Source of the DNA: a virus
Lineage: Duplodnaviria > Heunggongvirae > Uroviricota > Caudoviricetes
DNA: 14,932 nt
Reading direction: 5' to 3' (one strand)
IMG/VR virus record: IMGVR_UViG_2660238190_000004
Location: 1-14,932 of that record
Shown here piece after piece: positions 1,919 through 6,152 of this stretch (position 1 is its first letter; every line of letters starts with the position of its first letter). The notes under the pieces are model-generated. The model worked only from the letters and a program-made list of their open reading frames with translations. It made no database searches and was not told where the DNA came from. The translations under genes and the position numbers were made by a program.

Positions 1919-2304
1919 TATGCAAGCCTCACAATATAGTTAAATGCGATGTTTTTGACGGTGTTTTCCGCGTTACCAGCAGCGTTAACGGTGATGGTGT
2001 GTCCATGTGAACCAATCGCAACGGAGTGCGTATGCGCACCAATACCTACAGTATGTGCATGTGCGCCAGAACTTGCTGCAGTACCAGACAGCGAGTGGGT
2101 ATGAGCACCTGCTGACTGTGTCTGAATACGTTGATAATACGATCTACGGGAAGAAGTCCCCGGGCTTACTTGATACTGTGAATCCTGGACATAAGTGAAC
2201 CCACCGCCATCATAAAATGCTAACGCAGAACCGCCGCCTCCTGGCCAACGAATACCATTACCATGAGTATGATCACCGGCAGACCCCGTATTTACGCTGT
2301 AATG
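1918..2304 (-). pseudogene. stf: side tail fibre protein (Stf) C-terminal fragment, no start codon
   Basis: Hand translation of the minus strand gives ...[18 protein letters not shown]... and ends ...[26 protein letters not shown] with His-x-His repeat motifs typical of lambdoid side tail fibre C-termini. The frame opens just after an in-frame stop at 2305-2307, contains no Met, and abuts the Nu1 fragment. Confidence 0.75.
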
Positions 2305-2707
2305 TCAACGGCACACGCACAAGTATCCCCGAAATCTCCTGTGCCACACGTTGCAGAATGAAGGTAAACAGTTCAGTTTCCAGCACCACTCCGTCTTCAC
2401 GGGCATTTTTCAGTTCCTGCGCATCTGCCTGCGCTTTTGTGAGCCGGTAGCGTTCATAGTCAATGGTGCCGGGTTGTAAATCTGACTCCGCTGCCGCACG
2501 CAAATCGGCCAGTTCTTTGCGGAGCTTTTCGTTTTCGATATCAGTTTCCCTCTGCGCATACCACTGAATTGCCATGGCAGTATCAAATACAGATTCAATG
2601 CCCTTACTGCCTTTGGAGACGCAAGGGAGCCCCTGAGACTGCCAGCGTTCAATCGTCCGCGGGTCCACGTTAAAAATTTCGGCAAGCCTCTTTTTATTAA
2701 CCTTCAT
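2273..2707 (-). pseudogene. nu1: terminase small subunit Nu1, C-terminally truncated
   Basis: [105 protein letters not shown]... parallels lambda Nu1 (MEVNKKQLADIF...). Similarity stops about 5 codons before the stop (…[11 protein letters not shown]), and the protein is about 35 residues shorter than lambda Nu1. The track ORF begins at a TTG 8 codons upstream; the ATG at 2705-2707 aligns with the lambda start. Confidence 0.8.
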
Positions 2708-2839
2708 AGAACAACCCATTATCAAATACAAGGCCCGACATGAAAACGCCAGAAAAAGGCATTTTCGGACACTTTCATGTCGGACATTTATGAATGCAAT
2801 ATTAAAAAAAACAAAAAGTTATATTCGAGAAGTACCGAC

Positions 2840-2935: not shown

Positions 2936-3117
2936 TCGCGTGCAGGCATTAAAAATTTTGCAGTTCCATGCCTAGTTGAAACCTCGATTTCTATAACATC
3001 CAATTTTGTAAATTTAGATATAGCTCAACTTTTCCCAATGTTTTCAAGTGTATAAAAACAATTGGCGTTACGCCATAACACTATACTTAGGATAAGTAAA
3101 GATTTTAAGGAGTTTTA

Positions 3118-4185
3118 ATGAGTCAACATCAATATTATCCACAGCTGAAATGGAAGCCTGCTGAATATGAATCTCTGATGCTTTTAGATCAAACTACGCT
3201 CTCTGGTTTTACTCCGATCATTACCATTCCAGACATAGACTGGGATTATGAAAACGAATGCTACAAGAAGAGTTTGAGTTCTTACTTATCTGACTTCGGT
3301 ATTAACCTTGCGGCATCCTGGAAAGCCAATCGTCCTGTTTTGCTGGATGTTAAATATTTAGATAAACATGGTTCGAGCCGCCATCATCCTCTAGATATGT
3401 GTATCCAAGATGCTAGAGTAAATGGTAAGGAAATTATCCCTGTTGTTTCTCCCGCATATTCAACAAACTATATACATGCTGTTCAACGCAACTTAATCAA
3501 TGGGCTCGCTATATCTATCACCCCCCAGACATGGCACCAATTCACAAGTCTGGTTAACCACTTAAATATTCATCCTAGTTTAATTGATGTAATCATTGAT
3601 TTTGGAGATATTCAAAACGCAACTGATAGTTTAAAACAACAAGCATTAAGCATGGTCAACACATTATCAGGCCAAGCTCCGTGGAGAAACTTGATTTTAT
3701 CTTCAACCGCATACCCGGCATCACAGGCAGGGATACCGCAACATCAAGTTCATCATATTCCGCGCCATGAATACGATCTTTGGATGTACGTAGTACAGAA
3801 TTTTAGCAATGGAAGAACGCCAAGTTTTAGTGATTATCCCACCGCTAGCTCTACCATTACGAGCGTAGACCCACGCTTCATGTCTCAGTATGTCTCAGTG
3901 AGATATTCGAACGATACCTCATGGATCTTTGTAAAAGGTACCGCAGTTAAAGGAAATGGATGGGGCCAAACTAAAAACTTATGTACTACCCTTGTTAGTT
4001 CGCCAGAGTATCAAGTCTTTGGCTCCAAATTTAGTTGGGGGGATGATTACATTTACCAAAGATCATTAGGCGCTAACAAATCTGGCGGCTCTAAAGAATG
4101 GCGTAAAGTTGCACATACGCACCATATTACGTTAGTCGTGAGACAGCTTTATTGGTTGGCGCAGACTCAGCCTGCCAAGCCTTAA
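3118..4185 (+). CDS. Beta-family-like protein (phage P4 Beta / sce7725-like), function unknown
   Basis: 355-aa ORF with ATG start and SD 'taaggag' 5 nt upstream. N-terminal YYPQLKWKPAEYESL...FTPIITIPD resembles the Y-x-P-x-L-K-x-K-x-G/A-E signature I recall for the Beta protein family. Markedly AT-rich. The family assignment is from memory and unverified. Confidence 0.65.
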   Translation: MSQHQYYPQLKWKPAEYESLMLLDQTTLSGFTPIITIPDIDWDYENECYKKSLSSYLSDFGINLAASWKANRPVLLDVKYLDKHGSSRHHPLDMCIQDARVNGKEIIPVVSPAYSTNYIHAVQRNLINGLAISITPQTWHQFTSLVNHLNIHPSLIDVIIDFGDIQNATDSLKQQALSMVNTLSGQAPWRNLILSSTAYPASQAGIPQHQVHHIPRHEYDLWMYVVQNFSNGRTPSFSDYPTASSTITSVDPRFMSQYVSVRYSNDTSWIFVKGTAVKGNGWGQTKNLCTTLVSSPEYQVFGSKFSWGDDYIYQRSLGANKSGGSKEWRKVAHTHHITLVVRQLYWLAQTQPAKP

Positions 4186-4747
4186 CTTTCCAGCCTACGC
4201 GTTTCTTTAAGGCTGTTCTGACTTCAGGCCTGAGATTCGCTATTGGAATATTTTCCGCAATAATATTCCATAACTCAAATCGGGGCTTGCTTTTGATTCC
4301 TTTGGAATAGCCCCATCGTTCAAGTACGTCGATACATTCATCTTTCCAAAGCAATTGAGCGAGCATCAATGTGTCATGGTTTCGATTAAGCTTTTCTCCA
4401 CGCATGTGCTTTATAAGAATGGCGCCTTTTGGCCCAACAGAAACCGTTTTAACGCCCCACCAACCTGGGATTAACTTTAATGCTCCCTCAAGGTGTTTCT
4501 CAGCTACGACAAGAGTAACCTTGTCCATTACAGAAGAATAATGCTTGATTTGAAGAGGCAAACGCTCCAAAGAGTCATATTCACTTTTGAGCTCGTACCC
4601 GTGTATAACACCATTTATTACAGCAATGTCTGCTCTACTGGCGCCAAGGGATATGGAAAATTCATCGACCACAAGGCAGTCTGGATCTAAATGCGATTCT
4701 TTCAAAAGCTTATGATGCACCGCGAACCTAACATCTTGATCTTTCAT
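4127..4747 (-). CDS. predicted PD-(D/E)xK-fold nuclease-like protein
   Basis: 206-aa ORF with ATG start and a strong SD (ggagggagtaaggag) upstream. Motif VVDEF...RADIAVINGVIHGYELKS gives E ... D-(hydrophobic strand)-ExK spacing typical of restriction-endonuclease-like folds. Convergent with the Beta-like gene and overlaps it by 59 nt at the 3' ends. Confidence 0.6.
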   Translation of the reverse strand: MKDQDVRFAVHHKLLKESHLDPDCLVVDEFSISLGASRADIAVINGVIHGYELKSEYDSLERLPLQIKHYSSVMDKVTLVVAEKHLEGALKLIPGWWGVKTVSVGPKGAILIKHMRGEKLNRNHDTLMLAQLLWKDECIDVLERWGYSKGIKSKPRFELWNIIAENIPIANLRPEVRTALKKRVGWKVKAWQAESAPTNKAVSRLT

Positions 4748-4768
4748 GACTTCTCCTTACTCCCTCCG

Positions 4769-4804
4769 TTATTGAATTATAGCGCACTGCATTTTACTGC
4801 ATTT
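4769..4804 (-). promoter_or_regulatory. putative promoter of the nuclease-like gene, with tandem direct repeats
   Basis: Consensus -10 TATAAT on the minus strand (plus coordinates 4776-4781), about 29 nt upstream of the ATG at 4747. Two tandem copies of 'actgcattt' (plus strand, 4786-4804) occupy the spacer/-35 region, where no good -35 hexamer is present. Confidence 0.35.
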
Positions 4805-5096
4805 GAGAGATTTGACCACTTCAATCACAAAATGCTTATCTGCAGCAACAAGATTCATAGCCATACGACTATGGTGATTACCTTTTGTCTGGAAAACTGA
4901 CCATTCCACGAAGATCAGATAGGTCTATAGAATCTTGGTTTGTCATAGCGTTCGTCTTACTTTGAGATGAACCTTTGCTGCATAGGAGATCAGCCCGTCA
5001 AGGCTCACCAGCACTAACTGACTACTCAAAGGCTCATTCCAAAGGGTTTGGTTCGACGTGGTTGAGTGCGCTGCGGTGCGCGGTGAAATACCTGTA

Positions 5097-5126
5097 CAAA
5101 AATGCCCCGCATCTGCGAGGCATTTT
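5097..5126. terminator. intrinsic terminator downstream of Rz/Rz1 (bidirectional hairpin)
   Basis: Plus strand 'aaaaaatgccccgcatctgcgaggcatttt': GC-rich imperfect stem flanked by an A-run on one side and a T-run on the other, giving a U-tract after the stem on either strand. Lies about 40 nt past the Rz stop. Confidence 0.5.
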
Positions 5127-5163
5127 CCTGAAAGTCACGTATTAAATTTCAGTGAAATTAAAA

Positions 5164-5622
5164 TTATTTTAAGCACTGCGTCCTGATGTACTCCTGCAGG
5201 TAGTTGACCTGAGCGGTTATCTTGTCGATTCCACTTCGGAGACGGTAATAATTGAGTTCAGCATCTGCTGTAAGTCTTGGGCTTTCTCCATCGCCCATGC
5301 TGCTGGCTCCGGTCGTTGACTTTGCACAGGTGGCGGCGACTTGCAGGCGCTTACGCCCAGCAGAAACATCAGCACGAAGACTTTCGATAGTCGCGTTAGC
5401 ATCAGCAAGCTCCTTTGTGTATCTGGCGTCGAGTTCTGCTACATCACGCTGACGCATCTGCATGTCAGTAATTACCACGTTCGCCAGCTTCAGTTCTCTG
5501 GCATTTTTGTCGCGCTGGGCTTTGTAGGTAATGGCGTTATCGCGGTAATGATTAACAGCCCATGACAGGCAGACGATGGTGCAGATAACCAGAGTATAAA
5601 TAATCGCTGCGACTCTGCTCAC
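5164..5622 (-). CDS. Rz: i-spanin Rz
   Basis: ...[76 protein letters not shown]... is nearly collinear with lambda Rz. Probable GTG start at 5620-5622 overlapping the endolysin stop (GTGA); the track ORF starts at a TTG 5 codons upstream. Confidence 0.9.
5217..5408 (-). CDS. Rz1: o-spanin Rz1 (lipoprotein) embedded in Rz in an alternate frame
   Basis: 63-aa ORF nested inside Rz. Signal sequence with lipobox-like LLGVSAC followed by a proline-rich segment ([16 protein letters not shown]), as in lambda Rz1. The exact start is uncertain. Confidence 0.8.
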
Positions 5623-6152
5623 TGATCTATCCCCCAACAGGCTAATGCGCTTTCCTGGTCACGACGAATAACCTGTCCATAGCAGTTATTTGAACGTATG
5701 CGGCAATCGCGCCCACCATCTTTTATCCACCAGCGAATCGCCTCGCATGCGCCCTTACGATCACCGGCATTCAGCCGCTTATAAAACGTCGACGGGAAAC
5801 ACTTACCGGGGCCAATGTTATAGGGACAGAATGACGCTATACCCGCTTTCTGTGGTTCGGTCAGTGGTACTTTAATATTGCGCTCCACCCATGCCAGCGC
5901 CTTATCACGTTCAATAGCGTTAACCTGGTCGCATTTTTCCTTCGACAGCTTCATTCCCGGTATGACGGGCTTACCATCCACCATTGTGGCACCACGACAG
6001 ATGGTCCATATACCGGAACCATCGCGGTATGCCGTAGTGTGGTTACCCTCTTTTTCATCCAGAAACTGGTCAAGTATTTGAGGAGCAGACGCGCCTGCAG
6101 CAATCAGCGCCAGAACAGCAGCTGACAGGCCGTATTTGATTTTTGCGCTCAT
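5619..6152 (-). CDS. endolysin, T4-type lysozyme (GH24) with N-terminal SAR/signal-anchor domain
   Basis: 177 aa. N-terminal weakly hydrophobic Gly/Ala-rich segment ([18 protein letters not shown]) followed by E-x8-D-x5-T catalytic spacing ([20 protein letters not shown]), paralleling the phage 21 R21 SAR endolysin. Confidence 0.9.

Follow-up and report, generated by a model that had tools for sequence, protein, structure and literature searches.

Why would a lambdoid prophage of Escherichia coli carry, between its lysis genes and its terminase genes, two genes that run toward each other and share their 3' ends? The question is raised by IMG/VR record IMGVR_UViG_2660238190_000004, of which we analyzed the whole stretch of 14,932 nucleotides (nt), referred to here as the window; all coordinates are those of the window, and the late operon of the prophage lies on its minus strand. 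The first gene, beta (3118-4185, plus strand), encodes 355 amino acids (aa) from an ATG start. The second, a gene of the sce7726 or P4 cII family (4127-4747, minus strand), encodes 206 aa, also from an ATG, and both open reading frames (ORFs) are intact. The original prediction had described the two as a Beta-like protein and a PD-(D/E)xK nuclease forming a candidate defense or toxin module. Our analysis bears out that observation throughout and supports its interpretation at the family level. RefSeq names the genes 'beta family protein' and 'sce7726 family protein', and with names already in the databases the pair is not new in kind. The literature that we searched gave no function for sce7726 or for the pair, no system definition of the two-gene form, and no conserved overlap.

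Pairing and the shared junction

We scanned GTDB with each species represented by one genome, obtained 389 relatives of sce7726, and kept the best 80 loci. These spanned Proteobacteria, Firmicutes, Myxococcota, Acidobacteriota, Bacteroidota, Chloroflexota, Elusimicrobiota, Armatimonadota, Melainabacteria-like lineages, and several Patescibacteria. With iterated hidden Markov models, a Beta-family ORF was found adjoining sce7726 in 77 of the 78 assessable loci; the 2 further loci were cut by contig ends. The sole assessable locus with an intact sce7726 and no beta was that of Xenorhabdus koppenhoeferi (L009, 6001-6567), for which tblastn was negative. Likewise, a convergent sce7726 was present in 39 of 39 viral contigs with a complete close relative of the window's beta gene; a fortieth viral contig with a beta relative held its first 40 codons only. 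The identity matrices of the Beta and sce7726 proteins were correlated (r = 0.75, Mantel p <= 0.001). These data support inheritance of beta and sce7726 as a unit, a possibility that had been raised when the pair was first noticed.

The convergent arrangement and the 59-bp overlap had both been read correctly. The shared bases (4127-4185) encode residues 337-355 of Beta, which form the end of its C-terminal helix, and residues 187-206 of sce7726, which fall in a disordered tail. We compared 80 pairs, made up of the 77 GTDB loci, the window, a full-length E. coli prophage, and P4. All 80 were convergent, with no tandem and no divergent pair. Overlaps of 11 to 158 bp were present in 77 of them, every one of these 77 lengths being 2 mod 3, and the overlap was lost in P4, L007, and L010. 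The length of 59 bp is particular to the E. coli variant; its nearest relatives overlap by 11 bp.

We used as anchors the codons of an invariant sce7726 arginine (R183 here) and an invariant Beta histidine (H336 here) and counted the bases between them. This spacing was exactly 34 nt in 68 of 79 loci, 37 nt in two, 58 nt in one, and 73 nt (34 + 39) in the window's clade, and the pattern was lost only in P4 and L007. In the junction alignment, the sce7726 motif LKxRxxWR and the Beta motif NHHxTxVVxQL(A/S)xL are decoded from opposite strands of identical bases. Taken together, these comparisons indicate a genuine and ancient dual-coding overlap, not a product of chance. A 39-nt insertion, in frame on both strands, parts the dual-coded motifs in the clade to which the window belongs (Escherichia, Edwardsiella, Klebsiella, Pantoea, and Pectobacterium; window 4127-4201), and a W-K-V-K-A-W repeat in the sce7726 tail of this clade suggests a local duplication. 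When the two genes were compared with their relatives in Edwardsiella, Klebsiella, Pantoea, and Pectobacterium, dN/dS was 0.04-0.08 for both, with dS near saturation, values that point to strong purifying selection on each of them.

The two proteins and their relatives in known systems

The 355-aa protein had been placed in the P4 Beta family from its N-terminal signature, and a profile search agreed. PF14350 (Beta_protein) matched it along the full model (E = 8e-56; 190.4 bits, with the cut-off at 27; residues 6-342 over positions 1-342 of the 342-position model). PADLOC models of PD-Lambda-2_C also matched (PDLC03984, E = 4.4e-32, residues 141-344; PDLC03983, E = 2.2e-25), as did the beta model of gop_beta_cll (E = 3.5e-10). 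The original prediction had further suggested that Beta/sce7725-like proteins are often paired with an sce7726-like partner of roughly 200 aa. The sce7726 half of this suggestion was borne out by the match of the partner to NF033832 and by the tight pairing; the sce7725 half was not. NCBIfam returned no sce7725 match for the 355-aa protein, giving only a spurious match to ndhI (E = 0.11), and none for the Beta-like partners of Sorangium, P4, Gastranaerophilales, and Aneurinibacillus. Beta family is, therefore, the correct label. An AlphaFold2 model made from a 31-sequence alignment (predicted local distance difference test score 92, predicted template modeling score 0.91) consists of an alternating beta/alpha barrel, and Beta is thus predicted to be a TIM barrel. 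Invariant positions in relatives down to 31% identity numbered 38, many of them charged, and when alignment and model are read together D77, T197, R216, and D239 would be located at or immediately after strand ends. This set of invariant residues looks more like that of an enzyme or a ligand-binding protein than that of a passive antitoxin.

The 206-aa protein matched NF033832 (sce7726_fam) with E = 2e-54 (184.1 bits, the cut-off being 70, over positions 1-182 of the 184 in the model). The PADLOC 'cll' model, which belongs to gop_beta_cll, also matched it (E = 3.8e-31). PF26915 (Phage_P4_cII), a recent addition to Pfam, is found in its homologues, and P4 cII itself scores 151 bits on NF033832. 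The family comprises 3,601 clusters at 50% identity (E <= 1e-10). The protein is composed of an N-terminal PD-(D/E)xK domain (residues 1-118, approximately), a helical C-terminal domain (approximately 125-182), and a disordered tail (192-206). Structure prediction gave a restriction-endonuclease-like alpha/beta core, with SPO1766 (3dnx) as the best structural match, in keeping with the PD-(D/E)xK fold that had been proposed. In the family alignment, the E...D...ExK arrangement noticed earlier corresponds to E29, R38/D40, and E52-x-K54, all of them invariant. E29, D40, E52, and K54 do not vary in alignments of 37 and 47 sequences that include P4 cII; the same is true of Q66 and very nearly of Y70. 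By fold and catalytic motif, sce7726 is a predicted PD-(D/E)xK nuclease.

Both proteins have relatives in gop-beta-cII of P4, cited in the original prediction as a reported anti-phage system; the literature confirms that it is one, active against lambda and P1, and that Gop is toxic without Beta (Rousset et al. 2022, PMC9122126). Cell death by gop-beta-cII is triggered by orf184, a phage accessory gene (bioRxiv 10.1101/2023.04.06.535777). The two Beta proteins belong to the same Pfam family, are both 355 aa long, and share 22% identity over their full length (BLASTP E = 3e-07), and P4 cII is 27% identical to the sce7726 protein of the window (BLASTP E = 3e-19), with the same invariant E...D...ExK. 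In P4, gop and beta lie on the plus strand and cII on the minus strand, so that beta and cII are convergent and adjoin cos; the left end of P4 has the order cos - beta -> <- cII, as does the window, and in both the genes are non-essential cargo of a mobile element. P4 and the window also differ. P4 beta and cII are separated by a 27-bp gap with a terminator, whereas the window has the 59-bp overlap and no terminator; the P4 cII protein is extended at its C terminus by about 60 aa; the cassette of the window is carried by a lambdoid prophage and not by a P4 satellite; and the window lacks gop, the known toxin gene of P4, which encodes a small membrane protein and lies upstream of beta in the same operon. 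Between cos and beta there was no plus-strand ORF of more than 29 aa, and tblastn of P4 Gop against the window gave a best E of 0.24, elsewhere than in that interval.

The second relative is PD-lambda-2 (Vassallo et al. 2022, PMC9519451), which is made up of HigB-like A, the Xre-M78 peptidase B (toxic alone and neutralized by A), and C; C was described as 'related to a P4 phage antitoxin' and was required for defense. The window's Beta matches the component C models. However, homologues of A and B were not detected in the window (tblastn best E = 0.075, with no ORFs upstream of beta), and the published system was defined without a cII/sce7726 gene. With no gop and no PD-lambda-2 A or B, the window fits neither system definition.

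Other loci of the survey join these parts in different combinations. A PD-lambda-2 B homologue was present directly upstream of beta, where beta converges on sce7726, in 14 of 67 loci (best E = 6e-159; L057, L046, L036, L055, L059, L062, L064, L065, L067, L072-L075, and L081), and 9 of the 14 also had a HigB-like A. These loci came from Patescibacteria, Proteobacteria, Acidobacteriota, Armatimonadota, and Gemmatimonadota. Judged by gene content, they are PD-lambda-2-type systems with a cII-type nuclease in addition, outside the published definition. Among the defense genes near the loci, only PD-lambda-2 B recurred; the others were singletons. Of the surveyed loci only P4 had gop. In its position, a few loci carried LexA/CI-like HTH-S24 proteins or small hydrophobic proteins, and many had nothing tightly linked. 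A locus of E. coli AREA_C483 (L094, 1119-5668) has PD-lambda-2-type HigB, IrrE, and beta without sce7726 and is apparently equivalent to the original ECOR42 locus. In that locus a DUF6119 gene of 549 aa converges on beta with a gap of 263 nt and adjoins His-Xaa-Ser (Hxs) genes. From this distribution of loci, Beta is the common element of two validated systems, Beta with sce7726 is the commonest and apparently ancestral form, and the toxins are interchangeable; the same distribution suggests calling beta and sce7726 a core.

Setting in the prophage and transcription

The cassette (approximately 3010-4840) lies between the lysis genes and cos, as had been claimed. The Rz-type spanin gene, the last of the lysis genes, is at 5164-5637 on the minus strand (RefSeq 'lysis protein'; PF03245 in homologous neighbors), and a cosN-type cohesive-end 12-mer, GGGCGGCGACCT, was found as an exact match on the minus strand at 2883-2894, whereas none of 200 shuffled sequences contained it; these two positions make the placement between Rz and cos correct. 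We take GGGCGGCGACCT to be the lambda cohesive end. It lies 224 nt ahead of the beta start codon, and the packaged genome would have the cassette at its extreme right end. The lysozyme gene is at 5619-6152 on the minus (late) strand with a holin gene nearby, and the terminase small subunit gene (2273-2731, minus strand; named by RefSeq) is downstream of the cassette on the late-operon strand. The segment had been called AT-rich, and its content of G and C (GC) was 0.407 over 3010-4840 compared to 0.493 in the rest of the window, 0.510 in Rz-lysozyme, and 0.497 in the terminase small subunit gene.

Directly after Rz there is a 220-nt remnant in which the 3' end of a rha gene of P22 type survives (4943-5163; 87% nucleotide identity to P22/BTP1 rha), which marks the right-hand boundary of the replaced cargo. 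An intrinsic terminator hairpin sits inside this remnant, behind Rz on the minus strand (approximately 5100-5130; 13 bp and then U5; dG -22.6 kcal/mol, z = -5.65). None of 200 shuffles was equally stable, and the hairpin also folds on the plus strand. The nuclease gene is located after this terminator, as stated in the original prediction. In sister prophages with the window's flanks, the interval between Rz and terminase holds other genes, namely iss/bor, an intact rha ('Rha family transcriptional regulator'), and DUF1398/YnfO or DUF6979 genes, and this alternative cargo agrees with the earlier view of the site as one for dispensable morons.

Of 5,426 complete E. coli genomes, 126 contained at least 80% of the 2.4-kb segment. 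Among E. coli prophages with an identical cassette, Rz, lysozyme, and terminase were of different types, their identity to those of the window going from 100% down to 34%, 30%, and 67%, respectively, and the cassette was always at the Rz-terminase junction. An HK97-like contig has a cassette of 77% identity, flanked by a LydA-holin/GH108 lysis module on one side and an HNH-TerS-TerL module on the other, and a version of 55% identity was found in P4-like primase (DUF927) islands. Phage Rac-SA53 has the pair in its nin region, annotated as 'beta' and 'CII phage-like protein'. Gordonia phage DumpsterDude (L084, MT024859) has an sce7726 homologue at 3501-4115 on the plus strand (43% identity, 99% coverage), right after lysin A and lysin B. 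This ORF is unannotated in DumpsterDude, and a 216-bp 'gene 32' has been called on the opposite strand within it; gene 33 stands in the convergent partner position, overlaps the sce7726 match by about 70 nt, and is presumably the beta gene. At the nucleotide level, sequenced phages contained no relative of the cassette, and only the rha remnant was matched; at the protein level, relatives were found in Rac-SA53, Gordonia and Mycobacterium phages, Mx4, Bacillus jumbo phages, and P4. In four phage contexts (the window, L122, DumpsterDude, and Rac-SA53), sce7726 was co-directional with the flanking operon and beta was opposed to it.

These comparisons point to a self-contained, horizontally mobile moron at the lysis-packaging junction. 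Like other lambdoid morons, among them lambda bor/iss and P22 rha, it has a fixed junction as its insertion site, candidate promoters of its own, an atypical GC, and alternative cargo in its place in sister prophages. It differs from bor/iss and rha in its genes and presumed function and in being a convergent unit of two genes instead of a single gene. No homologue of gop, HigB, or the Xre-peptidase was found in the window as a third gene, and the small minus-strand ORFs upstream of sce7726 (4769-4909 and 4878-4946) are not kept as ORFs in relatives.

The strong Shine-Dalgarno sequences attributed to both genes are present, AAGGAG being located 5 nt before each ATG (3107-3112 on the plus strand for beta, with AAGGA kept in relatives, and 4753-4758 on the minus strand for sce7726). 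Homology to relatives in other genera, by blastn, spans 3105-4839. Upstream of sce7726, the candidate promoter of its own that had been proposed was located in a promoter-like block (4776-4822, minus strand) with TGGTCA (4818-4813), 16 nt, and TAAAAT (4796-4791), followed by a second -10-like hexamer, TATAAT (4781-4776). This block (TGGYCA-16-TAAAAT) is nearly invariant across the five genera Escherichia, Edwardsiella, Klebsiella, Pantoea, and Pectobacterium, whereas synonymous sites have reached saturation. Between the two -10-like hexamers there is a direct repeat, AATGCAGT-AA-AATGCAGT, which may be an operator, perhaps for autoregulation via the helical C-terminal domain of sce7726. Upstream of beta, an alignment of six loci from five genera revealed a conserved non-coding block (3014-3057, plus strand) that reads TTAGAT-ATAGCTCAA ... 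TTTTCA ... TATAAA, also written TTAGAT-TAGCTCAA ... TTTTCA ... TATAAA. It is probably the promoter or operator region of beta.

The gene junction contained no terminator-like hairpin (folding z of -0.9 and +0.3). Because the units are convergent and no terminator separates them, the full-length mRNAs of the two genes are necessarily complementary and collisions between RNA polymerases unavoidable, an arrangement that would couple and limit the expression of both partners. The sce7726 gene is encoded on the late strand, ahead of the terminase genes, and by analogy with lambda Q-antiterminated late transcription should cross sce7726 and run antisense over beta; late transcription of the prophage would then also raise sce7726. 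Convergent 3'-complementary transcripts are found in type I toxin-antitoxin loci such as txpA/ratA and in convergent type II restriction-modification pairs, an analogy only. Unlike in these pairs, both partners here are conserved protein-coding genes with dual-coded C-termini, and regulation at the RNA level is a possibility. In P4, Ghisotti et al. (1990, J Virol 64:24) reportedly described a mutation of the cII terminator with a temperature-sensitive phenotype, which was attributed to defective beta expression; this would be direct precedent for interference of cII transcription with beta.

Elsewhere in the window are a Q-type antiterminator (12128-12949), a DNA methyltransferase gene (10504-11553), a SASA/NanS-type esterase gene (6893-8764), and two prophage tRNA genes on the minus strand (10293-10369 and 10379-10454), one for Arg(tcg) and one with a CAT anticodon, which ARAGORN calls Met and RefSeq calls Ile. 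As is also seen in Stx-type phages, the two tRNA genes come after the DNA methyltransferase gene. A very AT-rich island (8600-9400, GC 0.33-0.38) with an IraM-like anti-adapter ORF (9010-9345, plus strand), situated between the esterase gene and the tRNAs, resembles another moron. The prophage of the window is truncated, and the terminase small-subunit gene is followed directly by tail-fibre-assembly-like genes (1334-1918 and 234-554) and a SAM methyltransferase gene (611-1279). The DLP12 remnant of K-12 shows the same arrangement. Strain DA33133 (L001) carries the same cassette within a full-length prophage that has head and tail genes.

Functions considered

On balance, and with modest confidence, we favor the view that the cassette is a stand-alone anti-phage or abortive-infection module with a nuclease effector, a Beta partner, and control by convergent transcription. 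The lysogen would be shielded from other phages, through either superinfection exclusion or abortive infection. The sce7726 nuclease would be the effector, and Beta would be its obligate partner, whether as a sensor, a regulator, or a second enzyme. The earlier label of a defense or toxin module is kept here as a putative one.

Several observations weigh against a defense module of this kind. Since Gop, the killer of P4 that Beta restrains, is absent here, the effector of the two-gene form can only be inferred. Xenorhabdus has sce7726 without beta, which suggests that sce7726 alone can be tolerated and that its toxicity may not be strong, and in some metagenome-assembled loci beta is broken although the adjoining sce7726 is intact. 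Conversely, Beta can work without sce7726, as there is none in the PD-lambda-2-type locus of AREA_C483, and the cloned PD-lambda-2 fragment extends just 396 bp past gene C. Known defense genes were only sporadic in the neighborhoods of other genomes, and a scan for consensus sigma-70 promoters found none for beta. The overlap, moreover, could be a frozen accident, without regulatory meaning, in which indels would harm both proteins.

This last point can be extended to the pairing as a whole, with the overlap and the pairing meaning nothing beyond linkage and being kept since indels damage two proteins; we consider such a historical accident possible but somewhat doubtful. The overlapped parts are C-terminal ends, the 39-nt insertion in the window's clade separated the dual-coded motifs while both genes survived, and P4, L007, and L010 do without an overlap. 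However, the overlap has been kept in all but three of the pairs compared, with identical spacing in 68 of 79, from Patescibacteria to Firmicutes and Proteobacteria, and the orientation has never changed. The reported terminator-mutant phenotype of P4 would, moreover, mean that beta can be affected by transcription of cII. The near-obligate pairing and co-inheritance would also be expected of an addiction or stabilization module, of the toxin-antitoxin or restriction-modification type, that serves the mobile element. The nuclease would be a latent toxin, Beta its antidote by inhibition or by substrate protection, phage exclusion incidental, and the convergent overlap a means of ensuring that neither gene is inherited alone. 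The layout resembles that of many type II restriction-modification gene pairs, and the cassette is carried on prophages, satellites, P4-like primase islands, and other mobile elements. In addition, P4 Beta is an antidote to a toxin (PMC9122126), and PD-lambda-2 was classed as toxin-antitoxin-like by Vassallo et al. (PMC9519451). Nonetheless, we regard addiction as unlikely to be the function. A potent toxin would not be expected to occur without beta, or beside a truncated one, as sce7726 does; a beta defect in P4 is lethal through Gop and not through cII (Ghisotti 1990, as cited in PMC9122126); and both characterized relatives confer phage resistance (PMC9519451, PMC9122126).

A role in the lytic cycle of the phage itself appears decidedly less probable still. 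In that case sce7726 would be a late nuclease for host DNA degradation, for processing in replication or packaging, or for counter-defense, and Beta made in the lysogen would silence it until late transcription. The orientation of the two genes in the four independent phage contexts is as such a role would have it, antiterminated late transcripts must cross sce7726 between Rz and terminase if lambda biology applies, and homologues occur in lytic Bacillus jumbo phages. However, the cassette is dispensable, with sister prophages of the same flanks holding other cargo, most members of the family are chromosomal with no phage genes within 3 kb, and both genes are intact in the window although its prophage is truncated. 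Least probable of all, in our estimation, is an accessory role in DNA repair or housekeeping, with sce7726 as an MmcB-like repair endonuclease and Beta as a metabolic TIM-barrel enzyme linked to it by chance. SPO1766 as the best structural match, the database name 'DNA repair protein MmcB-like' of one homologue, and the generic, enzyme-like barrel of Beta would fit such a role. The sporadic, mobile-element-linked, and low-GC distribution does not, and neither do the homology to components of two validated defense systems and the lack of conserved metabolic or repair neighbors.

The favored reading of the cassette as an anti-phage or abortive-infection module has a broader form, which we put forward tentatively and as less probable than not. 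In this form beta/sce7726 would be an ancient, autonomous immune module of two genes, interlocked by the dual-coding overlap and balanced by convergent transcription, through polymerase collision and antisense RNA, and would have become the common core, for sensing and effector action, of killers such as Gop or HigB/Xre-peptidase. If this is true, Gop-beta-cII and PD-lambda-2 would be variants of one family, and the form in lambdoid prophages would be the core acting alone. In the literature searched, both the mechanism of Gop-beta-cII and the role of component C in PD-lambda-2 were unexplained. The cassette is the minimal natural form of the part that these two systems have in common, and because it consists only of Beta and a cII-type nuclease in a tractable E. 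coli prophage, core function can be tested without accessory toxins. To our knowledge, current defense finders require gop, and the two-gene form would therefore escape them. The dual-coding convergent junction appears to be unreported in the literature searched. With its fixed phase, 34-nt anchors, and dual-coded C-terminal motifs across phyla, it is a rare case of a deeply conserved antiparallel gene overlap, and it offers a clean system for asking whether convergent transcription regulates immune or addiction modules.

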